A stretch of 64,000 nt of DNA, taken from Candidatus Kerfeldbacteria bacterium. Lineage in GTDB: Bacteria; Patescibacteriota; Patescibacteriia; SBBC01; CAIJZX01. Below are positions 8,481-43,800 of the stretch, one piece after another. The stretch covers positions 1,655 through 65,654 of the forward strand of contig CAIJZX010000014.1 of NCBI GenBank assembly GCA_903825245.1, read 5' to 3'. Under the pieces are notes generated by a model. It was not told where the DNA came from, did not search any database, and worked only from the letters and a program-made list of their open reading frames with translations. The number at the start of each line of letters is the position of its first letter. Positions within the stretch are counted from its first letter, which is position 1. Both the position numbers and the translations under genes were made by a program.

Positions 8481-8530
8481 TTCCATCTTTGTAGTAAGAT
8501 ACGTTTCTCAAATAAATGTGACGAACTGAA

Positions 8531-8573
8531 GGACACGTGGCGCCTGCCTGCCGGCAGGGAATTGGCATACGCA
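8531..8573 (+). repeat. Partial duplicate of the tRNA-Leu 5' end (nt 1-12 and 13-25), split by a 17-nt palindromic insert CCTGCCTGCCGGCAGGG
   Basis: GGACACGTGGCG at 8531-8542 matches tRNA positions 1-12 (8906-8917) with one mismatch. After the insert, AATTGGCATACGC at 8560-8572 is identical to tRNA positions 14-26. The fragment ends 11 nt before the GIY-YIG ATG. Confidence 0.7.
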
Positions 8574-8583
8574 CACAACATCA

Positions 8584-8835
8584 ATGTTCTACGTATACGC
8601 AATAAGTAGCCAGAAAAGAAAATATATCTACGTCGGACTGACCATCGACCTGGTTCGTCGTCTCCACGAGCACAACCATGGTTTTGTACATACAACAAGA
8701 TCGTATGCACCCTTTGACATGCTACTTATTGAAACGCTTCCTAACAGAATTCTTGCCCGACAACGAGAAAAGTTTTGGAAAACTGGGCGTGGGAAGGAAA
8801 TCCTTCGAACCCGAAAAATTCTTAACATCAAATAA
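8584..8835 (+). CDS. Small GIY-YIG nuclease-domain protein (UPF0213/YhbQ-like), 83 aa
   Basis: The N-terminus MFYVYAISSQKRKYIYVGLTIDLVRRLHEHN has the canonical GIY..YIG spacing and the R...E..N motif. The gene lies between the partial tRNA-Leu duplicate and the intact tRNA-Leu. Confidence 0.7.
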   Translation: MFYVYAISSQKRKYIYVGLTIDLVRRLHEHNHGFVHTTRSYAPFDMLLIETLPNRILARQREKFWKTGRGKEILRTRKILNIK

Positions 8836-8905
8836 GGGTCAACTTCATCGCGGCTTGCATATTTAGTCGAAAAAACGTAGTATCTCGTAGTTGGTAAATC
8901 AATTT

Positions 8906-8992
8906 GGGCACGTGGCGGAATTGGCATACGCGCTAGCTTCAGGAGCTAGTGGTCGCAAGACCATGAGGGTTCAACTCCCTCCGTGCCCACCA
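8906..8992 (+). tRNA. tRNA-Leu (anticodon CAG), 87 nt including the encoded CCA
   Basis: Manual fold: acceptor GGGCACG/CGTGCCC, anticodon stem CTAGC/GCTAG with loop TTCAGGA (anticodon CAG), a long variable arm GGTCGCAAGACC, T arm GAGGG-TTCAACT-CCCTC, discriminator A and CCA. It is followed by the hairpin CCTGCCT-ACCAGC-AGGCAGG at 9010-9029. Confidence 0.85.
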
Positions 8993-9074
8993 AAAATAAG
9001 TGACTCCTCCCTGCCTACCAGCAGGCAGGTCTCGCCCACCATCTGTTCAGATTTTTCTTTCTACTGTGGTCGAC

Positions 9075-27293: not shown

Positions 27294-27335
27294 GGCCCCC
27301 TCCTCAAGTGAGGAGGGGTAAGGGGAGGTGAAAAA
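27294..27335. repeat. GA-rich palindromic element GGCCCCCTCCTC-AAGT-GAGGAGGGGT-AAGGGGAGGTG
   Basis: Same family as the copy inside uvrC (5646-5680) and the extended copy at 32708-32803. This one is intergenic, between convergent genes. Confidence 0.7.
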
Positions 27336-30749: not shown

Positions 30750-30796
30750 AGTATTGTTCTTAAATTAATTTGAGGAATTCACTAACCGCAAACCAT

Positions 30797-31420
30797 ATGC
30801 CAGAAGGAGCCCCAAGTCACGAAGGAGAGGGTGTTGTTGTACACGATGAGACATACCGCGTAACTGATGTCGCCAAAGCTCGCACTATGGCCGCGGATGA
30901 ACGCACTCCAGAAGGTCGCGTAATACATGAGGGTTCGAATCGGGCTCGTAGCGATGCGGAGGTATTTAAGAAATCTGCCGAAGAACGCAAACGTTTATTT
31001 CCAGATACAGAATTTATTACCGATCATAGCGAAAAAGCAAACGAGCTCACAGCCCAAGCGGAAAACATCGAACACAGTAATGGTTTACATTACGAAGCCG
31101 ATAAAATTGTTGATGCGGTCGGTGAAAACGTTTCTTATGAAGCAATTTTTACGTACGAACAACGCGCCGCTGAAGCTCAACGGGATGTTGAGGCACTCCA
31201 ACGAGTATACGAAGGATTATTCGATAAGCCGGGACGTGAACGAGATGCACAGTCACTCAAGCGCTCTCTCAGCGAGACCCAAGACCAGGAACGTATTTAT
31301 CACTACGCCTTTTCTAAACTTCGCGGTAAAGGGATGGAGCAACTTGCGGGCGGGCATAAATTTTGGGATGAGTACAACGATTTTAAAGCAAAGAAGCTGG
31401 CAACGGTTGAAAAGAAATAA
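30797..31420 (+). CDS. Hypothetical acidic protein (ATG at 30797; the longest ORF begins at a TTG at 30770)
   Basis: A 207-aa ORF downstream of a consensus promoter. No conserved motif was recognised. After its stop the hairpin GCAGCGAGCCTAGACTCGCTGC is followed by TTTT, a likely bidirectional terminator shared with recA. Confidence 0.5.
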   Translation: MPEGAPSHEGEGVVVHDETYRVTDVAKARTMAADERTPEGRVIHEGSNRARSDAEVFKKSAEERKRLFPDTEFITDHSEKANELTAQAENIEHSNGLHYEADKIVDAVGENVSYEAIFTYEQRAAEAQRDVEALQRVYEGLFDKPGRERDAQSLKRSLSETQDQERIYHYAFSKLRGKGMEQLAGGHKFWDEYNDFKAKKLATVEKK

Positions 31421-31475: not shown

Positions 31476-32567
31476 TTATTCCGCCTTCTCTTCCGCCGGT
31501 TCGTCAGCAACCGCCGCCGGTTTTGTTCCAGCATCATCTTCCGCTTGGCGGTCTTTCGCTACTTCAAGAACCTTCTTCCGAAGCTCATCGATAATTTTTG
31601 GATTATCTTGCAAATATTGCTTCGAGGCTTCGCGGCCAACGCCGAATTTAATTTCACCGTAGGAAACGGTGTTACCGGATTTCGTCAGCACACCGTAGAG
31701 CAACGCCGTGTCGAGTACATCGGATACCAGTGAAATCCCTTGGTTGTACATGATGTCGAACTCAGCTACGCGGAACGGAGCGGCGACTTTGTTCTTCACA
31801 ATTTTCGCCTTGGTGCGGTTGCCGATAATCTTATCACCGAGTTTCAACTGACCAATGCGGCGAACTTCGATACGAACCGAGCAGTAGAATTTCAAGGCTG
31901 TCCCACCAGTCGTCGTTTCCGGATTACCGAAGAAGACGCCGATCTTCATGCGCGTCTGGTTGATGAAGATAACGATGGTTTTCGTCTTTGACACGATGGC
32001 CGTGAGCTTACGCAATGCTTGCGACATCAATCGCGCTTGCAAGCCCATATGTGAATCGCCCATCTCACCTTCAATTTCCGCTTTTGGCGTTAAGGCCGCG
32101 ACCGAGTCAATGACGACGACGTCAACCGCATTCGAGCGCACCAGTGTTTCCACGATTTCTAACGCTTGTTCACCTGAGTCCGGTTGTGAGATTAAGAGTT
32201 CATCAACATTCACGCCAATCTTTCGCGCGTAGCTTGGATCAAGAGCGTGTTCGGCATCAACGAAGGCGGCGGTTCCGCCGGCGCGCTGTACTTCCGCCAC
32301 AATGTGTTGTGCCAACGTGGTTTTTCCCGACGCTTCCGGTCCGAAGATTTCAATCACCCGACCGCGCGGCACGCCGCCCACGCCGAGCGCTAAATCTAAC
32401 GACAAACATCCCGTGGAGACGACATCGACGTCCATCGCCCGGGCTTCACTAAATTTCATAATCGATCCTTCACCGAAACGCTCTCGGATCTGATCGACCG
32501 CCGTTTGCGCGGCCGCATTTTTTATCTTACCGGCGTCAGCACCGGCGCTTTTTTGGCTCTTGGCCAT
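31476..32567 (-). CDS. recA: Recombinase A
   Basis: Walker [14 protein letters not shown], RecA loops L1 and L2, and an acidic C-terminus. 363 aa. Confidence 0.93.
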
Positions 32568-32707
32568 ATGGTTATTCCTTTCTTACCGCACGTCTTCCCA
32601 CAAATCGGGGACAGTCGGGGTTTAATGAATTAATGATACCCGAAGAATAACCGAATGTCAACAAAAGATATCCACAAGCTTTTTATGTCGTAATAATGCG
32701 GTATTTC

Positions 32708-32803
32708 GGCCCTCTCCTTGGATAAGGGGAGGTGAAGGAGGGGTCACAAAACCACCATTTTTTCACCACCTCCCCTTCACCCCTCCTCGGCTGAGGAGGG
32801 GGC
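32708..32803. repeat. Extended (~95-bp) composite GA-rich palindrome of the same family as 5646-5680 and 27294-27335
   Basis: GGCCCTCTCC..AAGGGGAGGTGAAGGAGGGGTCAC-AAAACCACCATTTTTT-CACCACCTCCCCTTCACCCCTCCTC-GGCT-GAGGAGGGGGCC. It contains the hairpin CCCCTCCTC/GAGGAGGGG and lies immediately upstream of the island promoter. Confidence 0.65.
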
Positions 32804-32814
32804 CGGATTGGGTC

Positions 32815-32843
32815 TTGACAAAATCCCCTACTTGTCCTATACT
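32815..32843 (+). promoter_or_regulatory. Consensus promoter TTGACA-N17-TATACT at the head of the small-gene island
   Basis: Hexamers at 32815-32820 and 32838-32843. It is the only consensus-quality + strand promoter found between here and the terminator at 37727-37750. Confidence 0.5.
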
Positions 32844-32907
32844 GTCCAGTTCTTTAAATCCATAAATTACTTCTACTTCGCCCACGTGAGCAGACGCGGC
32901 GCGAACG

Positions 32908-32965
32908 ACGGGTGCGTTGTCTTGATTACTCTGCTCATGTAGTCACTACGACGCACCCGTTTTTC
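32908..32965 (+). promoter_or_regulatory. Attenuator-like leader hairpin (ACGGGTGCG ...35-nt loop... CGCACCCGT followed by TTTTT), with a possible competing pairing TGAGCAGA/TCTGCTCA
   Basis: A 9-bp stem plus T5, lying between the promoter and the first island ORF. TGAGCAGA at 32887-32894 can pair with TCTGCTCA at 32930-32937, which sits inside the terminator loop. Confidence 0.4.
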
Positions 32966-32995
32966 GTTCAGACTTCATTTACCATAGGAGGATGT

Positions 32996-33205
32996 GTGAC
33001 TGCCCTAGAACGTGACACACGTGTGTCCATCATCATCGGAATCGCTGCCCTCTGTAGCATTACCTTGGTGGTTGGCGGAACTATGGCCAAATGTATCGGT
33101 ATGGCCACCAAGTGCGCAGGCGTGGTGATTGGTGGCGGCATCATCGCTGCCGTTTGTGTCGCCGCCTGGGGCTTGTACAGGTCTTATCAGACCACACGAA
33201 AGTAG
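32996..33205 (+). CDS. Island ORF A: small two-TM, Gly-rich membrane peptide (GTG start, 69 aa; longest ORF from 32912)
   Basis: AGGAGG 4 nt before the GTG. Product ...IIIGIAALCSITLVVGGTMAKCIGMATKCAGVVIGGGIIAAVCVAAWGLYRSYQTTRK, with glycine-zipper-like GxxxG motifs. Confidence 0.45.
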   Translation: MTALERDTRVSIIIGIAALCSITLVVGGTMAKCIGMATKCAGVVIGGGIIAAVCVAAWGLYRSYQTTRK

Positions 33206-33364
33206 CTCGTACCATCTACACAGATGTAAAACGTGAGGGAGGGAGAACAGCCACGTTTTCCTCCCACTCTCACATGAATTGATCACTACTGGTCACATCA
33301 TGCGAGAGGTCTGTACCTTGACTCTCAATAAAGAAAATACTGCGTTCCCGTTTTTCGTTCAACG
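33203..33364. repeat. Type-1 inter-ORF unit, copy 1 (~160 bp), starting at the ORF A stop codon
   Basis: TAGCTCGTACCATC...GTGAGGGAGGGAG..CCTCCCACTCTCAC-ATGAATTGATCACTACTGGTCACATCATGCGAGAGGTCTGTACCTTGACTCTCAATAAAGAAAATACTGCGTTCCCGTTTTTCGTTCAACG. The last ~100 nt are identical to copy 3. Confidence 0.75.
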
Positions 33365-33386
33365 TACTTCAACAAAGGGACACCCA

Positions 33387-33557
33387 ATGCTTCGTTCATT
33401 GGCACTGCTGGCTTGGATATGTCTCGCGTCATTAATCCATGACTGCGAAAGATACGTCTGGCGCTGCAAGGTGAAGAGACTTCGGAAGACACTCAATGGT
33501 CGAAATCATGAGTTGGATGTCTTCTTGAAGAATCTCGAGGAATACTACGCGATGTAG
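33387..33557 (+). CDS. Island ORF B: 56-aa protein with a hydrophobic N-terminus (MLRSLALLAWICLASLIHDCERYVWRCKVKRLRK...)
   Basis: The ATG is preceded by AAAGGGA. The longest ORF (33279) begins inside the repeat, and copy 2 of that repeat carries an in-frame stop, so the upstream part is not coding. Confidence 0.45.
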   Translation: MLRSLALLAWICLASLIHDCERYVWRCKVKRLRKTLNGRNHELDVFLKNLEEYYAM

Positions 33558-33714
33558 TTCGTACCGTCGCCACACGACGTAAACAAGTGAGGGAGGGAGA
33601 ACAGCCACGTTTTCCTCCCACTCTCACATGATTTGGTCACCGTTGGTCACATCATGCGAGAGGTCTGTACCTTGACTCTCAATGAAGAAAATAGCACTCC
33701 CGTTTTTCGTTCAA
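33555..33714. repeat. Type-1 inter-ORF unit, copy 2 (a diverged copy)
   Basis: It starts at the ORF B stop (TAGTTCGTACCGTC...) and shows ~85 % identity to copy 1, including the GTGAGGGAGGGAG hairpin and the CCCGTTTTTCGTTCAACG tail. Confidence 0.75.
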
Positions 33715-33748
33715 CGCTGTGAACCCATACAGCCCTTGGAGGATCATC

Positions 33749-33949
33749 ATGGTTCCTCATCCGCTCAAGCTCAAGCGTGATGAACAGTACCTGCAGAGCA
33801 GTATTGCTCTTCTGATCACGGTTGTCCCCATCGTCGTCATCGTGAGGTATGGCTGGCATGGTTATGCCGTATTATACCTGATCGCCCTCATCATCTTCGC
33901 GATCTACAAGTTCGTCAGGGGCATGATGATCAAGGTCCCGAAGAGCTAG
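33749..33949 (+). CDS. Island ORF C: 66-aa two-TM membrane peptide
   Basis: GGAGGA 5 nt before the ATG. MVPHPLKLKRDEQYLQSSIALLITVVPIVVIVRYGWHGYAVLYLIALIIFAIYKFVRGMMIKVPKS. Confidence 0.5.
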   Translation: MVPHPLKLKRDEQYLQSSIALLITVVPIVVIVRYGWHGYAVLYLIALIIFAIYKFVRGMMIKVPKS

Positions 33950-34120
33950 CCCGCACCATCGCCTCGCGATGAAATTTGTGAGGGAGGATTGAGGAGGGTT
34001 TACCTTTTCTCTTCTCCCTCACCCCTCACATGAATTGATCACTACTGGTCACATCATGCGAGAGGTCTGTACCTTGACTCTCAATAAAGAAAATACTGCG
34101 TTCCCGTTTTTCGTTCCACG
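33947..34120. repeat. Type-1 inter-ORF unit, copy 3
   Basis: It starts at the ORF C stop (TAGCCCGCACCATC...). Its 5' hairpin is the variant GTGAGGGAGGATTGAGGAGGG..CTCCCTCAC, and its 3' ~100 nt are identical to copy 1. Confidence 0.75.
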
Positions 34121-34137
34121 CCAATTCGGAGGTCATC

Positions 34138-34308
34138 ATGAGGATGGGCACGTTCAGCACGATCGAGCGAATTATGGAGGACAACGGACTACCGGTTCCA
34201 AGCGGGCGAGGAAATGAGAAGCTCAACGAAATCGCAAGAATCGTCGAGACTCACGAAATGCCTGAGGATGTCCGACAGCGTCTTCGTAACTTGCTCGCCC
34301 TTCGCTGA
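34138..34308 (+). CDS. Island ORF D: 56-aa hydrophilic protein (MRMGTFSTIERIMEDNGLPVPSGRGNEKLNEIARIVETHEMPEDVRQRLRNLLALR)
   Basis: GGAGG 5 nt before the ATG. It is absent from the ORF track only because it is under 60 aa. It ends just before a shortened leader (CAAGTTTTCGTTCAC). Confidence 0.4.
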   Translation: MRMGTFSTIERIMEDNGLPVPSGRGNEKLNEIARIVETHEMPEDVRQRLRNLLALR

Positions 34309-34366
34309 CTCAACGACAAGCAACGCACAAGTTTTCGTTCACACTTCTCGCTACGGAGGTTACACC

Positions 34367-34615
34367 ATGTCGTCCAATCCGATGACGTCGGAGCAGAAGG
34401 TTACGCAACTCCTGGTAGCGCTCGTGTTGACCATTCTTGGTCTGCCGATCGCCGCGCTTGGTGGTTACGGCATCTACTTTGCCTTCACCAATACCGGTGC
34501 CGATCCCGGCCTCGGATCAGCGGCCATTCTGGTCTTCTGCGTCGGCATCGGCGCTATCGGCATCGCCATCAAGCTGACCAACGATGCGCGTCGGGCGAAG
34601 ACGAGTCCGATCTAG
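34367..34615 (+). CDS. Island ORF E: 82-aa two-TM, Gly-rich membrane peptide
   Basis: GGAGG 7 nt before the ATG. MSSNPMTSEQKVTQLLVALVLTILGLPIAALGGYGIYFAFTNTGADPGLGSAAILVFCVGIGAIGIAIKLTNDARRAKTSPI. Confidence 0.5.
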   Translation: MSSNPMTSEQKVTQLLVALVLTILGLPIAALGGYGIYFAFTNTGADPGLGSAAILVFCVGIGAIGIAIKLTNDARRAKTSPI

Positions 34616-34649
34616 ATGCACCTTGAGATAAGGGGGACCCGCGAGTTCC

Positions 34650-34704
34650 CTTCTCACTCGACTTGAGAACTAATCCAATAGTTGTCCGGTCAAGTGAGAA
34701 AACC
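34650..34704 (+). repeat. Type-2 leader hairpin, copy 1 (TCTCACTCGAC ...loop... GTCAAGTGAGAAAACC)
   Basis: The stem CACTCGAC/GTCAAGTG contains one G-U pair and is followed by GAGAAAA. The motif family recurs upstream of ORFs at 35251, 36142 and 36738. Confidence 0.65.
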
Positions 34705-34745
34705 AAAGTAACATCGTTCCGTCACAATCAAATCTGGAGGATACA

Positions 34746-35105
34746 ATGACCAATCTGGCTTTGGCTGTCACTGTTATTGGCGCCGCCGCTGTCATCGTGG
34801 TTGTCTGGCGCTTCATGCGTCACAAGTTCCGCAACGACGAGATCGCTGTTCCGGACGAACCCACGCCGCCGCAACCGGTCTATAACGATAGGCCCGTGAT
34901 CGAGGCTGAAGAAATCGGTCACGGCGTTTACGAGATCGGGTTCTACGGACGCTTCGATGGGGTCCTGATGGACGTCTTTCCGGAATCCCTCGCCGCCTTC
35001 GTCAAGCAGCACCCCGAGTTGCGGATCATCAGCGTCTGCACCGGACGTGAATCCAGTTACAATGGCTTCACTTCCAGTATGGTTGTGTTGACCGAACTGC
35101 GTTAA
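34746..35105 (+). CDS. Island ORF F: 119-aa protein with an N-terminal TM anchor and a small soluble domain
   Basis: GGAGGA 4 nt before the ATG. MTNLALAVTVIGAAAVIVVVWRFMRHKF... followed by a ~85-aa domain. Confidence 0.55.
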   Translation: MTNLALAVTVIGAAAVIVVVWRFMRHKFRNDEIAVPDEPTPPQPVYNDRPVIEAEEIGHGVYEIGFYGRFDGVLMDVFPESLAAFVKQHPELRIISVCTGRESSYNGFTSSMVVLTELR

Positions 35106-35165
35106 GCACCTTCAACTCGAGCCACCCGGCTCATTGAGAGGATGGATAGCCACATCGTCCTCCTT

Positions 35166-35208
35166 TCACTCGAGTATTGCAAGCAATTGAAATATTCAAG
35201 CGAAACAC
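35166..35208 (+). repeat. Type-2 leader hairpin, copy 2 (a diverged copy: TCACTCGAG...TTCAAGCGAAACAC)
   Basis: It shares TCACTCGAG and the CAAG(T/C)GA(G/A)AAAC tail. A further partial CAACTCGAG...CTCATTGAG lies at 35111-35140. Confidence 0.5.
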
Positions 35209-35250
35209 AGAAAATAGAAACTGCTCTTCACAACACTAGGAGGTTCAAGG

Positions 35251-35484
35251 ATGGACATTCCTGCGTTTCACAGCGTTACGGCTCACAAAGAACATGAATG
35301 TTGTGAATGCCACGAGCGGATTCTTCCGAAGGAGAGGTGCTGGATTCAGTACTGGCCGGATGCTCGTCAGCGTCGGTGGAAGAATGTTTTTACCTGCTCT
35401 CACTGTCGTCCGCAACACGAAGTACCGGCACAGCCTACGCCGGCACCTCAGCCGATCAAGTCTCAGCAGTTGTTGCTTCTGTAG
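35251..35484 (+). CDS. Island ORF G: Cys-rich 77-aa protein (HECCECHERILPKERCW...CSHCRPQH), a zinc-ribbon-like product
   Basis: TAGGAGG 7 nt before the ATG. Two CxxC-like clusters lie about 30 residues apart, followed by a Pro/Gln-rich tail. Confidence 0.55.
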   Translation: MDIPAFHSVTAHKEHECCECHERILPKERCWIQYWPDARQRRWKNVFTCSHCRPQHEVPAQPTPAPQPIKSQQLLLL

Positions 35485-35508
35485 CCCACCTCAACAAGGA
35501 GCTCCAAA

Positions 35509-35967
35509 ATGGAATTCGTCGGGAAGAAGTTCGTGTTGTGGCCATACATGCCGGACATGCCCAGCGTGCAGTATCGCGACCAGCATGGCATTCTCCATTG
35601 GGGTCGACGCATCGAGAGAGAAATCGTCGTCACAATCGAAAATGAATCGACAAATGCGTCAGGACACGGCACCGACCTCGTCGCTCGTGACAAGGACGGC
35701 ATGCTGTATCAGTCGACCTGGGACGAGAGCAATTCCCGTCCCTACCGCGTCTGGTGGTACGTCGAGGGCGGCCGTGTGATCCTGCTCACGAATGCGATCA
35801 ATCTCTACAACGAACGTCCGACCGCATTCATCCGTCCCGATGGCACCCGCGCTGTCCCGGCAATCGCCACGGTCTGCGCCAAACATGACGAGGTATGCTT
35901 GTCGAATGGCGAATGCCCCATGTGCATGATGGAGAAGCATCGCGCCAAGCTGCAAGGTTCCGTCTAG
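35509..35967 (+). CDS. Island ORF H: hypothetical 152-aa protein with a C-terminal Cys cluster (CAKHDEVCLSNGECPMC)
   Basis: AAGGAG 7 nt before the ATG. It lies 24 nt after ORF G and is probably co-transcribed with it. The competing ORFs at 35294..35779 and 35307..35645 lack an RBS. Confidence 0.55.
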   Translation: MEFVGKKFVLWPYMPDMPSVQYRDQHGILHWGRRIEREIVVTIENESTNASGHGTDLVARDKDGMLYQSTWDESNSRPYRVWWYVEGGRVILLTNAINLYNERPTAFIRPDGTRAVPAIATVCAKHDEVCLSNGECPMCMMEKHRAKLQGSV

Positions 35968-36037
35968 ACCTCCTAGCTGTTCTCGCCTGCCGCGCAATTC
36001 TACGTTCACTTCGGTGGATATGGATTGCGCGGCGGGC

Positions 36038-36084
36038 TCTCACTCGAGCGTTTCACAACCGTGGAACGTTCAAGTGAGAAAACG
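36038..36084 (+). repeat. Type-2 leader hairpin, copy 3 (CTCTCACTCGAGCGTT...AACGTTCAAGTGAGAAAACG)
   Basis: A 14-nt stem with one mismatch and one G-U pair, followed by GTCACAAT as in copy 1. Confidence 0.65.
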
Positions 36085-36141
36085 AAAAGAAATACTGTTC
36101 TGTCACAATTCATCGCTTTACGCGAAGAGAGGAGCAGCATA

Positions 36142-36570
36142 ATGAGTTTGCTTGCGGCTTGTTTGTTGATCGCGGCCGTAGTGTTCCTGGTGGTAGCCAT
36201 TTTTCAGGATCGGGCGCGGTTTCGTGAGTTGGAAAAAAGGAGGAATCTGGAGCGGTGCGAATCACGGCACGCGCAAAACTTCCTCGAGCTGGAGATCAAG
36301 ATCCTCCGATATGTTCATGGCCACAAGCGCCTGCCCAAGAACATGGACCTTGTGCGCGGCATGAATATGAACCCGGATTATACCAACCCCTTCAGCGGAA
36401 ATCCGGCCAATGTCAATGACGTGACCGGGCTGGAGGAGATGCGAATCATCCTGCCCCATGATCTGACGTTCGAGATCTTGGCTCCGGAAGGTCCCGGATC
36501 GGAACGATGTGTCATCGCCCTGAATGATGCAAACGGCCAAGTGATGTGTCGGAGGACCATTTACGCGTAA
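36142..36570 (+). CDS. Island ORF: 142-aa protein with an N-terminal signal/anchor (MSLLAACLLIAAVVFLVVAIF) and a soluble domain
   Basis: GAGGAG 8 nt before the ATG. The longest ORF (36025) would begin inside the leader hairpin. Confidence 0.5.
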   Translation: MSLLAACLLIAAVVFLVVAIFQDRARFRELEKRRNLERCESRHAQNFLELEIKILRYVHGHKRLPKNMDLVRGMNMNPDYTNPFSGNPANVNDVTGLEEMRIILPHDLTFEILAPEGPGSERCVIALNDANGQVMCRRTIYA

Positions 36571-36636
36571 ACCGAGATCACAACCAACTGGTTTTCGAGA
36601 GATTTTCCCTGGCTCACGCCAAAAATAATCTCTCAG

Positions 36637-36697
36637 TTTCACTCGAGCGTTTCAGCGCCGCCTGCTCGCGGAACTGGAGCGCTCAAGTGAGAAAAGA
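36637..36697 (+). repeat. Type-2 leader hairpin, copy 4 (TTTCACTCGAGCG ...33-nt loop... CGCTCAAGTGAGAAAAG)
   Basis: The stem CACTCGAGCG/CGCTCAAGTG has one G-U pair, and the GAGAAAA tail is the same as in the other copies. Confidence 0.65.
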
Positions 36698-36737
36698 AAA
36701 TTGTAAAAACCGTTCATTCCAACTGAAGGAGAGTGCT

Positions 36738-37421
36738 ATGTCCACTTGTGCGCAGGAGGAATTCCTAGCCACACACGTCACATGTCGACCATATCGAGTG
36801 TCTGATCGGCGGGAAATTCGTCAGCTGATGTGTAATACCGCAATTATGGGCAATCCGATCGACCTGCAATGCACCGATCGCGAGCTCATTGCCGATTTGT
36901 TCACCCGGTACTACACCGACGTCACGCCGGGATGGATCTGGGTGCTCGAATTTCGCGGACGCCTCGTCGGTTACCTGATGGGTTGTCCGGACACGAAGCT
37001 GTTCCAGAAGTATATGGACGACGTCTACCCCAGTATCCTGCTCGGCGTCCTGCGTCGCGGATCGCTCTTCCGTTCCGGTTCAGCCGGCTTTCTGTGGCGG
37101 ACAATCGGAGACATTCTCGGAAAGGTACTTCGTCGCGAACCGCTCGAGTATTACAATCCGGCGTTTCCGGCTCACGCTCACCTGAATGTTTTGCCCGAAG
37201 GTCGTTCATCTACGTACCAGCTCGCTGCCCGATTTCTGAAGCAGCTCAGACAGCATAATGTGCCTGGGATCATGGTTGAAATCTGGGCCGAGAATGCCCA
37301 CATGGCCACCCTGCTGGAACACCATCGTTTTCAGAAGGTCCATTCCACCACCATGCCCGGCATGCGTCAGTCGAACGGTTATCCGTACCATGTCGCCACC
37401 TACGTCCGATCGCTGTTGTAG
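36738..37421 (+). CDS. Island ORF: GNAT-family N-acetyltransferase-like protein (227 aa)
   Basis: AAGGAG 7 nt before the ATG. A GNAT-like central and C-terminal region (GRLVGYLMG...NVLPEGRSSTYQLAARFLKQLRQHNVPGIMVEIWAENAHMATLLEHHRFQKV). The assignment is by motif resemblance only. Confidence 0.45.
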   Translation: MSTCAQEEFLATHVTCRPYRVSDRREIRQLMCNTAIMGNPIDLQCTDRELIADLFTRYYTDVTPGWIWVLEFRGRLVGYLMGCPDTKLFQKYMDDVYPSILLGVLRRGSLFRSGSAGFLWRTIGDILGKVLRREPLEYYNPAFPAHAHLNVLPEGRSSTYQLAARFLKQLRQHNVPGIMVEIWAENAHMATLLEHHRFQKVHSTTMPGMRQSNGYPYHVATYVRSLL

Positions 37422-37448
37422 CCTCACCCCTCACACAAGGAGCCGCAC

Positions 37449-37730
37449 GTGATCCAGTGGATGCTGTTGCTGGTAATTCTGGCTATGTTCTTCTCGCTCA
37501 TCAACAGCCGCGACAAAGGGTTGGACCAGATCATTTCCGGCTGGGTCATCTGGACTGGCTGGCTGTGGATTCTCATTCCCGGCGCCATGTTCGGCAACGA
37601 GATTCTCCGTTCGATCGGTGCACCGAATATCCGGATCTTCCAGTCCGGGTCGTGGCAGCCGCTCGGTCCGATGGTTCTCGGCGCGATCCTGCTCTTTTCC
37701 TGGCATCGCCGCCAGGCCAAACACAACTAA
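37449..37730 (+). CDS. Island ORF: 93-aa multi-TM membrane protein (GTG start)
   Basis: AAGGAG 6 nt before the GTG. Three hydrophobic helices (MIQWMLLLVILAMFFSLI..., WVIWTGWLWILIPGAMF, LGPMVLGAILLFSW). It is followed immediately by a strong terminator. Confidence 0.55.
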   Translation: MIQWMLLLVILAMFFSLINSRDKGLDQIISGWVIWTGWLWILIPGAMFGNEILRSIGAPNIRIFQSGSWQPLGPMVLGAILLFSWHRRQAKHN

Positions 37731-37750
37731 CCTTCGGGTTAGTTTTTTTT
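37727..37750 (+). terminator. Rho-independent terminator CTAACC-TTCG-GGTTAG followed by T8 at the end of the island; it overlaps the stop of the convergent RodZ-like gene
   Basis: A 6-bp stem with a TTCG tetraloop and eight T residues on the + strand. Confidence 0.6.
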
Positions 37751-38411
37751 ATTCCACGAGCACTTGCCGTATCACAACTCGAGCTGAACTGTGTTTCTTT
37801 ATTGCAGAAATTTTCAATGTATTAAGTCCGGTGTGTAGGTCAATCGTCAAAGTAAATGAACCAGCTGTCGTTTGCACTGCTTCGTCGTTTATTGTAACGG
37901 TCGCATTAGGGTCGGTTTTTCCGGTAATAGTCATTGTTGTTTGCTTCGTAGCAATATCGCGACTTGGTTGTGTGATGAGCAATTGTGGTGGAAGAAAGTT
38001 TTGTATTACTTGCAAGCCGATATAGGCGAACACCGCAACCAGTATTATTCCAGCCGCAATAAAACGAATGTATTTCCGTCCCCAAGAAAAATCGGTATTC
38101 GCACGAGGTGTGAGTAGTGGCCGTGAGGCTGGTCCAGTTTTTGTGACCACGGCATATTCTTGCTCAAAAATGCCGATCGCCATCGCCACATCGGTTTCTA
38201 ATAATTCAGCATAACGACGAACGAATTGTTTGGCATATACCTGGCCAGGCAAATCACGATACCGCGAGGATTCAATCGCCACTAAATACTTCGGCGAGAT
38301 GTGTAATCGCGAAGCAACATCCTCAATCGTCAATCGGCTTTCGTTTCGAAGTGTTTGGAGGCGATCACCGAGCGTCGCCCCATCAACTAGCGGCCGCTTC
38401 GAGAAGGTCAT
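37749..38411 (-). CDS. RodZ-like XRE-family helix-turn-helix membrane protein
   Basis: An N-terminal HTH (LGDRLQTLRNESRLTIEDVASRLHISPKYLVAIE), a single TM helix (IRFIAAGIILVAVFAYIGL) and a C-terminal beta-rich domain. It overlaps the ftsK stop by 4 nt. Confidence 0.7.
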   Translation of the reverse strand: MTFSKRPLVDGATLGDRLQTLRNESRLTIEDVASRLHISPKYLVAIESSRYRDLPGQVYAKQFVRRYAELLETDVAMAIGIFEQEYAVVTKTGPASRPLLTPRANTDFSWGRKYIRFIAAGIILVAVFAYIGLQVIQNFLPPQLLITQPSRDIATKQTTMTITGKTDPNATVTINDEAVQTTAGSFTLTIDLHTGLNTLKISAIKKHSSARVVIRQVLVE

Positions 38412-40768
38412 CCCGTTACGTCGTTGTTATCTTCACTCGGCTCCTCAATAACTTCTTCCGGTTGCGTAGGCGGCACATCATCATCGATTGGCAAATCACG
38501 CGGATCAACCGGCACCCCGGCAGCTGCAGACGTAGAATTAGAACCTGCGTCACGCTCAGTTGAACCTGCGATGGAATCTGTTGAGCCATAAATTTCTCGC
38601 GGTTTTGCGCCCATGCCCGGACCGATAAATCCTTGCTGCTCGAGAAGATCCATAATACGCGCAGCACGCGCATACCCAAGACGTAAATGGCGTTGCAAGA
38701 GCGTCGTCGAGGCTTTTCCGGTTTGCAGAATAATATCTCGCGCCTGACCAAGAAGCTCATCATCACCTAGGTCTTCCAGGCTACCGCCGATTTGTGGCGC
38801 TGGCTTATCGACAATGTCGGTCATGTAATCCGGCTTACCGCGTTGCTTGAGGTATTGCGTGACGCGTTCGACTTCTTTTTCCGAAACGTAGGCACCCTGA
38901 AGTCGCTTTGGTTTTGAGAGTTCAGCTGACATGTAGAGCATGTCACCCTTACCAAGGAGTTTTTCCGCACCCGAGGTATCAAGAATAGTGCGCGAATCAA
39001 TTTGCGAAGCCACACTGAAAGCTGCACGAGCCGTCACGTTAGCTTTTATTAAACCAGTGATGACGTCAACTGATGGTCGTTGGGTCGCTAAGACCAAGTG
39101 AATGCCGACCGCGCGAGCCATTTGCGCTAAACGAACAATCGCCGCTTCAACTTCCTTCGCCGCCACGGTCATTAAATCAGCTAACTCATCAATAATAACC
39201 ACGATGTATGGCATATCGTCGCTCACTTCTTTGCGGTACGAAGAAATATTCCGCTTCCCAGCATTCTGTAATACTTGATAGCGTCGATCCATTTCCGATA
39301 CGACCCAGCGCAAGGCGTTAATGGTCTTCGTGGTGTCGGTAATAACTGGCGTTAGCAAGTGCGGAATATCGTTGTACAGCGATAATTCGACACGCTTCGG
39401 GTCGACAAGAATCAGCTTTAAATCATCCGGCGAATTACTAAAGAGCAAGCTTAAAATTAAACTATTAATTTGCACCGATTTTCCTGAACCGGTTGCACCG
39501 GCGATCAATAAGTGCGGCAACGGTTCGAGATTGGCGACCCATGGTGCACCGGACACATCTTTACCAAGACTGAAGCTCAAATCCGATTTGCGCATGCGGA
39601 ACGCATCGGATGACAAAATCTCGCGGAGATTGACAATAGCCACGCTCTGGTTCGGCACTTCAATACCGACCAGTGACTTGCCCGGAATTGGCGCCTCAAT
39701 ACGAATTGGGTGCGCTGCTAGCGCCAAGGCTAAGTCGTTACTCAGTGAAGCAATTTGTGCTAGACGCACGCCCTCAGCTGGTTTCAGTGTGAACTGCGTA
39801 ACCGTTGGACCAACGTTGACGTCGCCCATTTCAACCGAGATACCAAAAGTTTCTAGCGCCCGTCTGATTTTTTCTTTATTGGCCTCGATGTTACCGCTCG
39901 TTGGTTTGCCGCCCGAAAGATCAAGTAAATCAAATGGGATAACGATGTGCCGTTTCTCCCTCTTCGGTTTCGGCGGTAATGGAACCATTTCTTCTTCGAC
40001 GTGTTCACCGCTAGCGCTTTCCGTTTTTACATCGGAAATTTCCTGTTTGGTAAATTCTGGATCTTGTGCGCCGTTAGCGTCATCAATCACGTCTTGGTCG
40101 TTCGCGTCATGAGCGAGTTTTCGCTGCCACCATCGATTGCGCATCCAAGCCATAAACCACGCCGGGAGATTTGCTTGTTGGCCAAGCCCCTTGAGCGATG
40201 TATTAAACATGATGAGTAAGCCGATCAAGAACAAACCAACCATAATCACGCCGGCGGCAGCCGCGCCAAGGCCCTGGCGCAATGGGTAATCCATCAACAC
40301 GCCGAGATACCCGCCGCCATCGCCGTTGATTGCTCGCGCGACTGAATCGCCGATCGGTAAGAATAACTGCATAATCCCGGCGAGGCTGAATACCGAAATA
40401 CCAAAGCCGATCCACTGCGCGATGGTGATGTGGAATTTTTCCGGAAACAGCAGGTAAATACCGATGACGGCGAGGTAAACCCACAGCACATACCGCTGCC
40501 AGCCGACTAAGGTGCCGAGTCCCCGACCGAGCGCGCCGCCGCCGGTACTAGCGTGGTTAAAGACGCTCAATCCGATAACCGCCGCGGCCAAAAAAAGAAT
40601 GACGATCGTAATCGCCCGACGTGTTTCTGGGGTAAGTTTCGGCATCGGCAATTCAGCTGGTGCGCGCCGTTCCGATTTCTCGTTGCCCCTGGCGCGTGAA
40701 CGCCTGCTGGATCGTGTCGACTGAGCCATAGAAGTGCTAACTATAGCATAAATGCGAAGGTTCGACAA
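38408..40768 (-). CDS. ftsK: DNA translocase FtsK/SpoIIIE
   Basis: N-terminal TM helices, a Pro/charged linker, a motor domain with Walker A GATGSGKSV, and a C-terminal gamma (winged-helix) domain. Confidence 0.9.
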   Translation of the reverse strand: MSNLRIYAIVSTSMAQSTRSSRRSRARGNEKSERRAPAELPMPKLTPETRRAITIVILFLAAAVIGLSVFNHASTGGGALGRGLGTLVGWQRYVLWVYLAVIGIYLLFPEKFHITIAQWIGFGISVFSLAGIMQLFLPIGDSVARAINGDGGGYLGVLMDYPLRQGLGAAAAGVIMVGLFLIGLLIMFNTSLKGLGQQANLPAWFMAWMRNRWWQRKLAHDANDQDVIDDANGAQDPEFTKQEISDVKTESASGEHVEEEMVPLPPKPKREKRHIVIPFDLLDLSGGKPTSGNIEANKEKIRRALETFGISVEMGDVNVGPTVTQFTLKPAEGVRLAQIASLSNDLALALAAHPIRIEAPIPGKSLVGIEVPNQSVAIVNLREILSSDAFRMRKSDLSFSLGKDVSGAPWVANLEPLPHLLIAGATGSGKSVQINSLILSLLFSNSPDDLKLILVDPKRVELSLYNDIPHLLTPVITDTTKTINALRWVVSEMDRRYQVLQNAGKRNISSYRKEVSDDMPYIVVIIDELADLMTVAAKEVEAAIVRLAQMARAVGIHLVLATQRPSVDVITGLIKANVTARAAFSVASQIDSRTILDTSGAEKLLGKGDMLYMSAELSKPKRLQGAYVSEKEVERVTQYLKQRGKPDYMTDIVDKPAPQIGGSLEDLGDDELLGQARDIILQTGKASTTLLQRHLRLGYARAARIMDLLEQQGFIGPGMGAKPREIYGSTDSIAGSTERDAGSNSTSAAAGVPVDPRDLPIDDDVPPTQPEEVIEEPSEDNNDVTG

Positions 40769-40804: not shown

Positions 40805-43800
40805 TTAATTCACCCAGAAATGCACCACTGGACTCAGCGTCGTATTTCCCGCATAGTCGTATGCTTCTACTTGTAGCGTATGCGATGAGCCCGGGGCAAA
40901 GGCGTTCGTATAAGTTAACTGTAATGTATAAGGTGCGCCAACGTATGTGAAGGGACAGTAGTGAATACTTGGTAACGTACAATCGAAGTAGAACCGCGAA
41001 CTCGCAACACCAACGTTATCTGTGATATTTGCCTTGAATACCGATGGATACGCCGTCGGATTCCCATCCTTGGGAGAGATAATGCTCACTACGGGTGGCG
41101 TTGTGTCTGTTCCACCAAACACCGTAAATGAAACTGAGGCCGAACTTGTTTTTAATCCAGAATTACTTACCGCCACGGCATATCCGGATAGATTAGTCGG
41201 GGTAAGGTAATGTGATACATCAAAAGCCGCAGCATATGGCGCTGTCGTATCGGTTGCGAACGGCGTTGTTTGTCCTTGAAGGTAGAATTCAACTTGCTTA
41301 ATGCCGTCGGGTACACTCGCTGAAGCGGAGAAGTTAAGTACGCCAGCGTAGGGTTGTCCAGCCAGGGGCGATGTAAGGGCAACGGTAGGTGGCGGAAGTG
41401 GGGCCGCGGTGATGTTAACAGTAAGCGACTGACTTTGTTGTCCTCCATCAGTAGCCCAAATCGTTGCGGACTTTGTCTTCCCAAGATCTGCGGCGGTCGG
41501 CGTCCACGTCAAGGTAGCGCTCGTCGAATTAAAGGTTACCCCGGATGGTAAAGCGGTTGCCACATATGTCACGGCAGTTCCATCCGGATCTGTTGCGTGG
41601 ACTTGAACAGAAAAAGGTATGCCGACGTATGCCGTCTGACTTGGTGTTGTATCGAAAACCGGTGGCGGGTTTGCCGATGGCGTGGTGAAGTTCATCACTT
41701 TCATATTTTGACACCAGTAGTTTGCTGTGCCATTACCGTAGCCTGTCCATATAGTCCCGTACATATTATACGTATATGTCGTGTTGGGAGCGACGAGAAA
41801 TGTCACCACCGGCGTCATACCAGAAAACGTTATGGCTGGATTGAGAAGTTGATCGCTGGAAGTTGTACATTTGCCATCGCTTGTACAAGAGCGGACACGA
41901 AAATGTTTTAATTTACCATTAACCGCCGAGTTGTTAATTTCAACTTGATGACCCTTCTCTTGATAAGATGCATGCTGTGTATAGCCATAATTTGTATCTA
42001 GACCATATTCAACTGTTGTATCTGAATTGATGTCGGTCGACCAATTCACCCGACCTTCATAACTAAGACCTGGCGCGGCAGGCATCCATGAAATACCCGA
42101 TATTACTGGAGCACCGAGAGTTGAGGATTCTGACTGAGAGTACCAAGGCAGTAAAACTGCATATCCCGTCGTTTGTTTCGCATCGCAAGACCATGCAACC
42201 GTCGCTTTGTCCCCTGTGAAGAATACTCGTGGAGCTGGCGGGCTTTGCATGCCGGGTGTAGTAATTTCCAAAATTGTACTTTGTGTGCACAATTGATTCT
42301 GAGCAGGTATTGTTGTGTTACAGGACATTATTCTAGTCAAATAGGTTGTACTCGGACTTACGGGAAGTATCATGGAATGGTGTGTTACCGCTCCGGCAGG
42401 ATCTGGGTAAGTATAAGTGCCCATCCCCGGAACCGTTAAATAACTAGTACCAACAGACGGAATATCTGTATCCCAACTCACTTGCACCGCATATGGCCAT
42501 TGGTCCAAAATAAGTTTTACGGCATAATTTGATAGTGCTGGAGGCGGAGGAAGCGCTGGGGTGGTTATTATTTGGTCACTCGTTGAGGAACAGGTTTTCG
42601 GACTACCAGTCGTACATGAGGTTAATTTATAGTGGTACGTGGTGCCGGGTTCTGTCGCGAAGTCCCACCTATGCGACGTCAGCGACTCACTAACATAATA
42701 CGTTGTGCCATACTCGGTTGTGGTTCCGAGGTCAATTTGTTTGTCGGCTGGCCTACTCGTTGTCCAAGTGACCCCTGAATAAGTAAGTGTTGTGTATGAG
42801 GTAATTGCAGAAATTGCCAAGGCTGACTGATTATTAAATGCGATTGGGATTGCCTTGGTGCTAGTGAGACCACCGGGGTCTACAACCATAAACTCCGGAG
42901 CATAAATACCGCTTGCTTGTGTCGCATCTGGCGTCCAGGAAAATGTTTTGTTCGTTGCATTATAGGTCGAGCCAACAGGTTTACTGCTTTCCACAACACT
43001 AATGGTTAAGTCCGAGGCAGCAGTGTTTGCGTCTGAAGCGGTAACGGTAAACGTCGCGGTACTGCCATAGTTTATTCGTGGCGGATCGACATGATTAATA
43101 TATGGCACGCCAAATTGGAGAACCGTAATAATCGGACTTGTGTTATCGGTTTCAAACGGTTCCGAATAACGGTTATCAGGGTCCATCACAATTTTTACAT
43201 GAGTTGGCATGGTTATTCCGGAAGGAACGGTAACAGTATCGACGAGTGAACCACCAGAACCGCCATTCAAGTAATACACAAATCCGTTGTACACCGTGGT
43301 GTTGGTATCTGTGTTGATAATACGATATGGCACATTCTTCGCGCTCGTCCAACCAGCATTATCGACCCACAAATCCAAACCGAGTTTATTGCTCCCTTTA
43401 TCCACCACGGGCTGGCTTCCCGCCATCGCAGCAAATGATGTAAACGAGAAATCTGGTCGACGGTCGAAGGCTTGTTTCACTGCTGCTTGGGCATTGACTA
43501 GGCCGTAGCCGGAATATTGGTTCCACGTTCCGGGGAAGTTTTGCAGCACACCGCTCTCGTCAGTCACATCATGCATTGTTGTGGCGGTTGTTTCCAAAAT
43601 TTGCTTTATATCGTATAGACTTAACGCCGGGTTGACGGATTTTATGAGACCAACGATACCGCTGACAATTGGCGCTGCAAAGCTTGTTCCTTCATCATAG
43701 AAAAAGTATTGATTGCTCCCAGTACCACTCAAGTTTTGCACCGCTCCGCAAGTATCATGATAATAGATTGGCTCAATACACTTTGTTACATCGTCAAGAA

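Follow-up and report, generated by a model that had tools for sequence, protein, structure and literature searches.

The locus described here was found in a 64,000-nt stretch of the Candidatus Kerfeldbacteria contig CAIJZX010000014.1 (assembly GCA_903825245.1, positions 1,655 to 65,654 of the forward strand), which is called the window below and whose first letter is position 1. The G+C content of the window was 50%. Its RecA showed no more than 73-76% identity to any GTDB species representative, an exact look-up of recA matched no record, and the closest named RecA records were nearly all metagenome-assembled genomes (MAGs) of Patescibacteria (Candidate Phyla Radiation, CPR). The element under study is an island of small open reading frames (ORFs) between recA and rodZ, in the gene order efp, a 216-aa ORF, recA (31476-32567, -), island, rodZ (37749-38411, -) and ftsK (38408-40768, -). 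The 11 co-oriented ORFs of 56-227 aa (O1 to O11), whose starts were assigned from ribosome-binding sites (RBS), stood behind a promoter and a structured leader, with non-coding two-hairpin modules between them. A first-pass annotation, made from the letters and their translations, had already described the consensus promoter at 32815-32843, the GA-rich palindrome, the terminator and at least 11 small ORFs, all of which were confirmed in the sequence. The features of the island were as follows (TM, transmembrane; CM, covariance model).

32706-32806, no strand assigned: GA/CT-rich palindrome, 100 nt, dG -61 kcal/mol, z -3.9
32815-32843, +: island promoter TTGACA-17-TATACT, then an invariant GTTCTTT start region
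32877-32905, +: leader hairpin P1, UUCGCCCACGU-GAGCAG-ACGCGGCGCGAA, nearly invariant in five genomes
32907-32960, with U-run to 32969, +: leader hairpin P2, ~24-bp stem with compensatory changes, apical loop CUGCUCA
32996-33205, +: O1, 69 aa, GTG start, RBS AGGAGG, Gly-rich, two TM segments
33206-33386, +: type-1 module copy a, hairpin A 33237-33265 (GA-rich, loop AGCCAC), hairpin B' 33267-33308
33387-33557, +: O2, 56 aa, weak RBS AAAGGGA, the least certain ORF
33558-33748, +: type-1 module copy b, at 93% identity with copy a
33749-33949, +: O3, 66 aa, RBS GGAGG, two TM segments
33950-34137, +: type-1 module copy c, variant hairpin A 33978-34022, a 96-nt stretch 99% identical to copy a
34138-34308, +: O4, 56 aa, soluble, RBS GGAGGT
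34367-34615, +: O5, 82 aa, RBS GGAGGT, Gly-rich, two TM segments
34616-34745, +: type-2 module, hairpin A 34630-34652, hairpin B 34653-34698 (GAC/GTC subtype), tail GAAAACCAAA...CGTCACAA
34746-35105, +: O6, 119 aa, N-terminal anchor
35106-35250, +: type-2 module, hairpin A 35135-35168, hairpin B 35164-35203
35251-35484, +: O7, 77 aa, two CxxC pairs (zinc-ribbon-like), RBS AGGAGGT
35509-35967, +: O8, 152 aa, ORFan, starting 24 nt past O7
35968-36141, +: type-2 module, hairpin A 35985-36036, hairpin B 36038-36079, whole spacer -85 kcal/mol, z -8.9
36142-36570, +: O9, 142 aa, N-terminal anchor
36571-36737, +: type-2 module, hairpin A 36597-36634, hairpin B 36637-36692 (long subtype), best CM match (72.7 bits)
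36738-37421, +: O10, 227 aa, assigned to the GNAT acetyltransferases by way of its homologues (transitive homology)
37449-37730, +: O11, 93 aa, GTG start, multi-TM
37725-37752, +: intrinsic terminator, 8-bp stem (37725-37744), UUCG loop, T8

About 14 more distant Patescibacteria loci had ftsK, rodZ and recA side by side on one strand, the gap between rodZ and recA measuring 48-660 nt. In the window, 5.1 kb separated the rodZ stop from the recA start and the island ORFs lay on the opposite strand. Because the three genes are contiguous in these distant Patescibacteria, the rodZ-recA block represents an insertion on the opposite strand, which agreed, as regards insertion, with the earlier proposal of a single, horizontally acquired locus. 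The recA-O1 junction was recovered in L090, L091 and L094, from independent ENA assemblies of other samples, the island interior in L081-L085 and L089, and the O11-rodZ junction in L086, L095 and L096, all at 99-100% identity. With both housekeeping junctions seen in independent assemblies, the island is not an assembly artefact.

A clade was delimited by RodZ homologues 55-71% identical, and the locus was taken from the window and six other members. RecA was 83-91% identical within the clade, and the outgroup L001 showed 32% identity for RodZ and 73% for RecA. An island occupied the exact rodZ-recA site in five of the seven genomes, and the site was empty in the other two, with 382 nt (L109) and 155 nt (L115) between rodZ and recA. 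The islands of L097 (3.4 kb), L112 (5.9 kb), L114 (6.2 kb) and L106 (>4.8 kb, the contig ending in the promoter region) had the same site and the same orientation as that of the window. All five had a common promoter and leader and one family of intercistronic two-hairpin elements, while the ORFs were largely different and their orders differed. Among the window ORFs, O6, O10 and O11 alone had homologues in other islands, and the following overlaps in cargo were detected.

O6 and an L112 ORF: 53% identity
O10 and a frameshifted L097 ORF: 71% identity
O11 and the last L114 ORF, likewise next to rodZ: 66% identity
an L106 ORF and an L114 ORF: 45% identity
an L112 ORF and an L114 ORF: 46% identity
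malic-enzyme genes of L106 and L112: 72% identity

Islands resembled one another in DNA mostly outside the coding sequences, namely in the leader, in 40-60-nt pieces of modules and in the 5' region of recA, at 87-100% identity; in the same DNA comparison, the ORFs shared between islands showed 72-74% identity. The locus is old enough to be common to genomes whose RodZ proteins are just 55-71% identical. This comparison between genomes supplies firm evidence for what appears in the sequences as cassette-like turnover, and the architecture is very probably that of an inserted, cassette-like, variable array of small genes. The cassette-array logic of the first-pass annotation held in that relatives carried different ORFs with the same site, promoter, leader and elements; it did not hold for the elements themselves, which are unlike integron-type recombination sites.

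The island promoter was the sole 11/12 match on the + strand of the block, promoter-like sites were not in excess region-wide, and homologous promoters were located at the head of the L097, L106, L112 and L114 islands. Between promoter and O1 lay a leader of ~150 nt, and in each of the five genomes P2 was followed by GUUUUUCGUU (U-run). Once aligned, the five leaders gave a two-hairpin consensus fold of 35 pairs, with compensatory changes at 10; pairing reached 94.7% on the sense strand versus 79.5% on the antisense strand (G.U cells 27 vs 1). The leader sequence TTCGCCCAYGTGAGCAGRCGCGG occurred in one copy per locus, always at the island head, and the leader was conserved more than the flanking proteins. 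By its predicted structure, P2 with its U-run is an intrinsic terminator (attenuator) upstream of O1, and the attenuator-like leader noted earlier was thereby found again with compensatory changes in five genomes. At the other end of the island, the T-run of the terminator overlapped the stop codon of the convergent rodZ (37749). The sense strand of the block contained this single terminator and the single promoter, consistent with the one transcription unit suggested previously.

The P1 loop UGAGCAG was complementary to the P2 loop CUGCUCA over 7 nt and both loops were invariant, so that the two may kiss or may be bound by one common factor. Beyond this complementarity, no antiterminator helix or sensor domain was demonstrated in the leader. 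The ANTAR dual-hexaloop motif, in which the loops follow an A..G.. pattern, was considered and dropped, the loops GAGCAG and CUGCUC being unlike that pattern. The leader pattern gave two matches in Joint Genome Institute (JGI) metagenomes, both by chance inside a coding gene of a high-GC organism. Rfam held no family for either leader or modules (block and two other islands at relaxed thresholds, whole window at gathering thresholds), and the matches obtained were chance miRNA-like ones on the palindrome, plus two tRNAs.

The type-2 modules had a constant order of stop codon, stable variable hairpin A, immediately adjoining hairpin B, A-rich tail (GAAAAC.AAA ... CUGUCACAA) and Shine-Dalgarno (SD) site. 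The base of hairpin B consisted of 5 bp (CUCAC/GUGAG, CUCUC/GAGAG or UUCAU/AUGAA), followed by a conserved 2x2 UC/AA internal loop, an upper stem of consensus GAGCGUUUCA...UGGAGCGCUC and a variable tip, 16-20 pairs in all. In the long subtype, the tip was a covarying 4-5-bp stem with the hexaloop CUGCUC. Pairing was present in 94.4% of cells (12 copies) compared with 27-46% with slid partners, double changes occurred in 14 of the 20 pairs, and 0/500 shuffles matched the observed values. The covariance model CM R1, built from hairpin-B copies, was run on 409 kb made up of the whole window, the flanks and 14 other Patescibacteria recA loci. Its matches with E < 1e-3 were all inside islands, the strong ones on the sense strand, and a stricter regular-expression scan for hairpin B agreed with it.

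When related genomes were searched for these elements beside different ORFs, as had been proposed, type-2 counterparts were found in all four other islands (L097, 1; L106, 2-3; L112, 5; L114, 4-5) and type-1 counterparts in none. A 57-nt stretch over hairpin B of the 34616-34745 module was 89% identical to L106, and the 40-nt stretch 35135-35174 (hairpin A, loop AUAGCCACA) was 100% identical at two sites of L112, whose RodZ protein is 60% identical to that of the window. The AGCCAC loop was found in this hairpin A as well as in the type-1 hairpin A. The tail of type-1 copy a ended in CCCGTTTTTCGTTCA, the same ending as that of the leader, and the type-1 tail is a repeat of the 3' end of the leader terminator. 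Both of the element families distinguished by the first-pass annotation exist, but they are variants of one module, because both fold into the tandem A+B layout. On this basis the array was divided into eight module-delimited units, three of them bicistronic (O4-O5, O7-O8 and O10-O11); the O4-O5 spacer of 58 nt contained TTTTCGTTCACACTTC.

For the strand at which the modules function, pair counts were used, the comparison of sense and antisense minimum free energy (MFE) having given no clear answer. Hairpin B paired in 94.4% of cells on the sense strand versus 84.3% on the antisense strand, with 29 vs 7 G.U cells, and its orientation was constant, between a stop codon and the next SD. Constant orientation, the stop-SD position, the included tail and SD and the sense-strand excess of G.U pairs argue for a function in mRNA, and the A-rich tail and SD inside the conserved unit in themselves point to such a role. 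These results suggested that the modules are likely to act at the RNA level.

The island differed from its surroundings in translation signals. In 10/11 island ORFs, 5 nt or more of AAGGAGGT were matched 4-8 nt ahead of the start, compared with 2/39 housekeeping ORFs of the window (recA and one other), and alternative starts changed nothing. The exception was O2, so the strong RBS earlier ascribed to every ORF applied to ten of them. GGAGG pentamers were concentrated in the block, which held 18 of the 39 in the window on 8% of the sequence. In all five island genomes, AGGAGG-type SDs preceded island ORFs, and the flanking rpoB, rpoC, ftsK, rodZ, efp, S6, SSB and S18 genes were without SD, recA with its conserved AAGGA excepted.

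A contrast was also found in composition. Bulk GC of the block (0.53-0.54) was little above the window mean of 0.50, and other 1-kb bins reached 0.57, so the visibly higher GC reported earlier was not borne out in bulk, whereas third-position GC (GC3) and codon usage were strongly different. In frame, the island ORFs had GC1 0.56, GC2 0.41 and GC3 0.68, a pattern which indicates that they are real coding sequences. Their GC3 stood against 0.52 +/- 0.065 for housekeeping ORFs, and the distance in relative synonymous codon usage (RSCU) was 1.30, against a null of 0.52 +/- 0.10 from resampled housekeeping codons, with 0/500 as high. GC3 of island and flank in the five genomes was as follows.

window: 0.68 vs 0.52
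L112: 0.84 vs 0.57
L106: 0.68 vs 0.50
L114: 0.79 vs 0.71
L097: 0.67 vs 0.64

Island bulk GC tracked the respective host genome. The contrast in GC3 and SD may have arisen through transfer from a separate gene pool, to which the occurrence of the nearest non-island relative of O10 in non-CPR-like contigs would point, through GC-biased gene conversion in a recombination hot spot, or through a distinct translation regime. Acquisition from a high-GC donor, as first proposed, was not supported, since bulk GC follows the hosts, the locus is old and similarity to phages, plasmids or viruses was not detected; a distinct gene pool may still be considered because the GC3 and SD contrast recurs in every island.

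No significant match to Pfam, PHROGs, NCBIfam or PADLOC was obtained for any of O1-O11, and these general libraries likewise gave no immunity-gene homology, of a type VI secretion system (T6SS) or other, for O1-O11. The bacteriocin-, holin- or toxin-like roles suggested at first, with their immunity partners, thus drew no match from these libraries. O8 and O6 each matched just itself among 5.8 billion proteins. O10 itself reached no better than E 0.13 against Pfam GNAT; it had 816 homologues, and 5 of the 8 scanned passed the Pfam GNAT thresholds, so its membership is transitive, because its homologues and not O10 itself pass them. Its nearest non-island relative (50% identity) lay in non-CPR-like contigs of GC 0.58-0.63. 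A hydrophobic segment was predicted in 7/11 window ORFs, in 18/22 ORFs examined in L106, L112 and L114, and in 0/2 examined in L097. O2 had been missed by the gene caller of one independent assembly. The product descriptions of the first-pass annotation were largely upheld: the Cys-rich zinc-ribbon-like peptide is O7 with its two CxxC pairs, an N-terminal anchor of the signal-anchored kind was found in both O6 and O9, the GNAT-like acetyltransferase is O10 and the multi-TM peptide O11. Of the three supposedly Gly-rich two-TM peptides, O1, O3 and O5 all had two TM segments, but Gly-richness was limited to O1 and O5. The cargo thus appears to consist mainly of small membrane-anchored or secreted ORFan proteins, together with a putative GNAT acetyltransferase; a role at the envelope, in interaction with host, competitor or phage, is our guess.

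The malic enzyme was the sole cargo with a metabolic annotation. Its gene stood between the small-ORF array and rodZ in L106 (10680-11888) and L112 (10679-11833), with its own TATACT promoter and no SD; otherwise the called genes of the L097, L106, L112 and L114 islands had no Pfam match. The O10 homologue of L097 (9681-10364) was split by a frameshift into pieces of 163 aa and 49 aa, through cargo decay or sequencing error. Just upstream of the island promoter of L097, in 8339-8998, a DUF559/Vsr-like endonuclease ORF (8456-8869, -), uncalled, was flanked by two near-identical GC-rich hairpins, and may be a small selfish insert.

Taking these findings together, we lean, by a modest degree, towards a clade-specific, regulated and hypervariable expression locus for small envelope proteins, with the RNA modules as adaptors. 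One strong sigma-70-type promoter would drive the conserved leader (about 110 nt), which passes through P1 and then through the P2 terminator hairpin and U-run. Since the leader ends in such a hairpin, expression of the array may be conditional on read-through of P2, and read-through would give one polycistronic mRNA ending at the 37725-37752 terminator. In this mRNA, each of the eight units would be preceded by a tandem-hairpin module, an A-rich tail and a strong SD. The modules could serve as intercistronic processing or stability signals, the upstream RNA ending in hairpin A and the downstream RNA beginning with hairpin B; intercistronic processing as the specific mechanism is proposed tentatively, by analogy with the RNase III sites of phage T7 early mRNA. 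Together with the SD, the modules could also be the adaptors for translation in a genome that otherwise starts its genes without SD. As dispersed repeats far better conserved than the cargo, they probably also supply homology for the gain, loss and shuffling of units, which is the mechanism of recombination that we infer.

Several points weigh against this reading. The single transcript, the attenuation and the processing are deduced from the DNA letters only, and the 16S 3' end and the RNase III gene (rnc) fall outside the window. Three ORF junctions were without a module, which means that modules are not needed for every cistron. Nor were modules tied to given genes, the homologues of O6, O10 and O11 elsewhere carrying different modules or none. 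Type-1 modules were seen in this genome alone and may be a recent local duplication. The MFE of isolated hairpin B was lower on the sense strand in 6/16 copies (mean difference -1.2 kcal/mol), and given this ambiguity hairpin B may have a role at the DNA level. Single-sequence AlphaFold models of O8 and O9, with predicted local distance difference test (pLDDT) values of 51 and 55, were too poor for use. Finally, the sole direct hint of cassette loss, in L093, could be a repeat-mediated deletion or an assembly collapse: O1 was joined directly to O4-O5, with O2 and O3 absent (window 33364 to 34025), and the junction fell within the 96 nt that are identical between two type-1 copies.

Other assembly variants were set aside as evidence of mobility, being indistinguishable from mis-joins at short repeats. 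L081 departed from the window sequence at 32764, at the left end. L087 (1824-1941) and L088 (1826-1906) departed at window 37661, at the right end, after following the island as far as O11 codon 71, and continued in frame into mreB-like NIGGGTSEIAVISLGG. Contigs with this O11-to-mreB-like junction came from three assemblies, and it represents either a second context or a chimera. The L087/L088 break adjoined a 16-nt inverted repeat of window 37564-37579; because the break points of L081 and L087/L088 touch short repeats, all may be mis-joins. Comparison of strains for selection was uninformative, the L090/L092 differences being confined to a mosaic recA stretch, probably a chimeric contig end. 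The assembly variants accordingly give weak evidence of ongoing turnover.

Among the alternatives, the one that fares best, although we consider it unlikely, is that the modules are regulatory sites and not processing sites. They would bind an antiterminator or a translational regulator, or act as partners of the leader through loop kissing and processive antitermination, as with HK022 put or the Bacillus EAR RNA; in one variant, the P1 loop UGAGCAG kisses both P2 and the long hairpin B at their CUGCUC loops, and read-through of the internal hairpins is thereby coordinated. The complementary 6-7-nt loops were indeed invariant in the leader (5/5 genomes), and a CUGCUC loop stood on covarying stems in 5-6 of the 17 hairpin-B copies. 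The terminator in the leader, the stable A hairpins after each unit and the conservation of the leader beyond that of the flanking proteins fit this explanation as well. However, invariant loops lend kissing no covariation support, most hairpin-B copies are without the CUGCUC loop, and a candidate regulator gene was not found in the islands. The A hairpins need not be terminators, as they lack a U-run.

A more speculative extension, to which we assign little probability, sees in the locus a gene-capture and expression platform peculiar to this Patescibacteria clade, in which the module is exchange joint and RNA adaptor at once and the leader gates the array. Exchange would proceed by an unlinked, unrecognised recombinase or by homologous recombination guided by the modules. 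The adaptor would render any gene so acquired expressible, by providing processing, stability and an SD where the genome is otherwise SD-independent, and gating could operate through GAGCAG/CUGCUC loop-loop contacts. If true, such a platform would be functionally analogous to integrons and made of other components.

An integron-like site-specific system, with hairpin B (or A+B) as a folded-DNA site comparable to attC and an unlinked tyrosine or serine recombinase that would take up and excise units there, is improbable. Clusters of attC sites lacking integrase (CALINs) are known, and the island resembles them in its co-oriented, unrelated, promoterless ORFs behind one promoter, in a cargo that is mosaic between genomes and in L093 as a possible deletion variant. 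The modules also have attC-like geometry, as imperfect palindromes with conserved base, unpaired central spacer (UC/AA) and variable tip. Against this stand the sites themselves. The attC cores RYYYAAC/GTTRRRY were absent, and the 17 hairpin-B copies ended (C)ACTCGAG ... (C/T/G)TCAAG(T/C/A)GAG, that is, with cores ACTCGAG...TCAAGTG. Integrons recombine through the bottom strand, whereas the modules paired better on the coding-sense strand (94% vs 84%); they were not one per ORF, did not travel with a given gene, and contained an A-rich tail and SD that point to the mRNA. No integrase was found in the 64-kb window or in the L097, L106, L112 and L114 islands, and no recombinase Pfam domain in window ORFs of at least 150 aa, so the absence of integrase and attC cores reported at first was upheld. 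Membership in the integrons fails on these three grounds: no integrase, no attC cores and the wrong preferred strand.

A mobile origin is very improbable: in this reading the island would be what is left of a phage, a plasmid or another such element, or would have come recently from a donor of higher GC, such as the host of the symbiont, and would have retained its own RBS and codon style. The strong SDs and the GC3 contrast with host genes, the non-CPR-like contigs of GC 0.58-0.63 that hold the 50%-identical relative of O10, and several small two-TM, holin-like peptides would be in line with it. Neither the proteins, the block, the leader nor the modules, however, matched PHROG, PADLOC, phage, plasmid or IMG/VR collections (the leader and hairpin-B patterns were run on IMG/VR, the whole block against phage and plasmid collections), and integrase, replication and structural genes were lacking. 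The same chromosomal site and leader recurred in genomes with RodZ 55-71% identical, and bulk GC followed each host. No donor is visible, since most of the cargo had no homologue anywhere. Least of all, an ordinary conserved lineage operon or an assembly chimera, suggested by the uniform strand, promoter and terminator and by the short contigs of the region that break at repeats in other assemblies, is hardly credible when gene content is almost wholly different between relatives, two relatives are without the locus and both housekeeping junctions were recovered at 99-100% identity.

Returning to the expression locus with RNA adaptors, its closest mechanistic analogue would be the RNase III processing hairpins that reportedly lie between the cistrons of early and late mRNAs of phage T7 (Dunn and Studier; Robertson), and its closest organisational analogues the integrons/CALINs and the rAID-1 arrays. 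Like the T7 hairpins, the modules are related stems of ~20 bp with an internal loop, located between cistrons and followed by a strong RBS. They show no sequence similarity to them, stand two in tandem and occur in a bacterial chromosome with variable cargo, where cleavage is our proposal. With integrons and CALINs the island shares a head promoter, co-oriented, unrelated and small, often ORFan genes, palindromic elements between them and variable content. It differs from them in having no IntI and no attC cores, in sense-strand pairing, in the A-rich tail and SD, in elements that are not strictly one per ORF, in a terminator-containing leader and in its fixed rodZ-recA site. Flexible (additive) genomic islands are similar in fixed position, rapid turnover of content among close relatives and envelope-biased cargo, but are usually found beside tRNA genes with integrases and without a common promoter, leader or RNA adaptor. 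The leader itself recalls attenuators, HK022 put and Bacillus EAR, as a structured RNA right after the promoter of a long operon with internal hairpins, and intrinsic-terminator attenuators in particular by its hairpin and U-run; unlike those elements, it has no Rfam match. The rAID-1 arrays of Bacteroidales have been described as integron-like; their genes have low GC, and they are defined by recognisable immunity-gene homologues and by a 5' recombinase of XerD type, with 44% identity or more to BF9343_RS08045 (Ross et al. 2019, bioRxiv 10.1101/471110). The island is like them in its long co-directional array of small genes, repetitive intergenic sequences and GC departing from the host, and unlike them in the absence of a recombinase and of immunity homology and in a GC3 that is raised, not lowered.

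Searches of the literature turned up no account of a locus like this one or of its RNA elements. Patescibacteria make up a large share of bacterial diversity, and their gene regulation and surface variation are almost unknown. The leader attenuator and the intercistronic tandem hairpin constitute two new covariation-supported RNA elements outside Rfam. The compact, fixed-site, hypervariable array of small envelope proteins offers natural candidates for interaction of episymbionts with host, phage or competitor, and indicates that cassette-like gene turnover can take place without integron machinery. SD-led island genes and SD-less housekeeping genes represent two styles of translation initiation in one genome. 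These styles bear on reports of many Parcubacteria without anti-SD; in a published survey, the anti-SD was undetectable in about half of the Parcubacteria (PMC9297842).

At the left end of the island, the palindrome stands between the divergent recA promoter and the island promoter, and is probably an insulator or a bidirectional hairpin. Its inner core CCCCTCCTCGGCTGAGGAGGGG belongs to a short hairpin repeat, GGCCCCCTCCTC-NNNN-GAGGAGGGG, which has SD-like and anti-SD-like arms and was located at window 5651-5672, 27299-27321 and 32782-32803, with one copy in the palindrome; related GC hairpins were also seen in L097 and L109. The consensus recA promoter TTGACA-17-TATCAT (window 32661-32633, -) and the SD AAGGA were kept throughout the clade, empty-site members included, and recA was one of very few housekeeping genes here with an SD. 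Its conserved 5' untranslated region contained CCCCGACTGTCCCCGATTTGTGGG (window 32568-32661, - sense; L097 8142-8260; the L109 spacer).

Two further ORFs were noted in the neighbourhood. Between efp and recA, the 216-aa ORF (window 30770-31420, +) had a TTG start and no Pfam match, and efp directly adjoined recA in L097, L109, L112, L114 and L115. Between rpoC and ftsK, a 1548-aa ORF (window 40805-45451, -) carried subtilisin-type motifs (VDSGID..., HGS..., GTSFAAP...) and many repeat domains. As L109 and L112 had just a short spacer in its place, this ORF is another insertion specific to the lineage, the second in this conserved run of genes.

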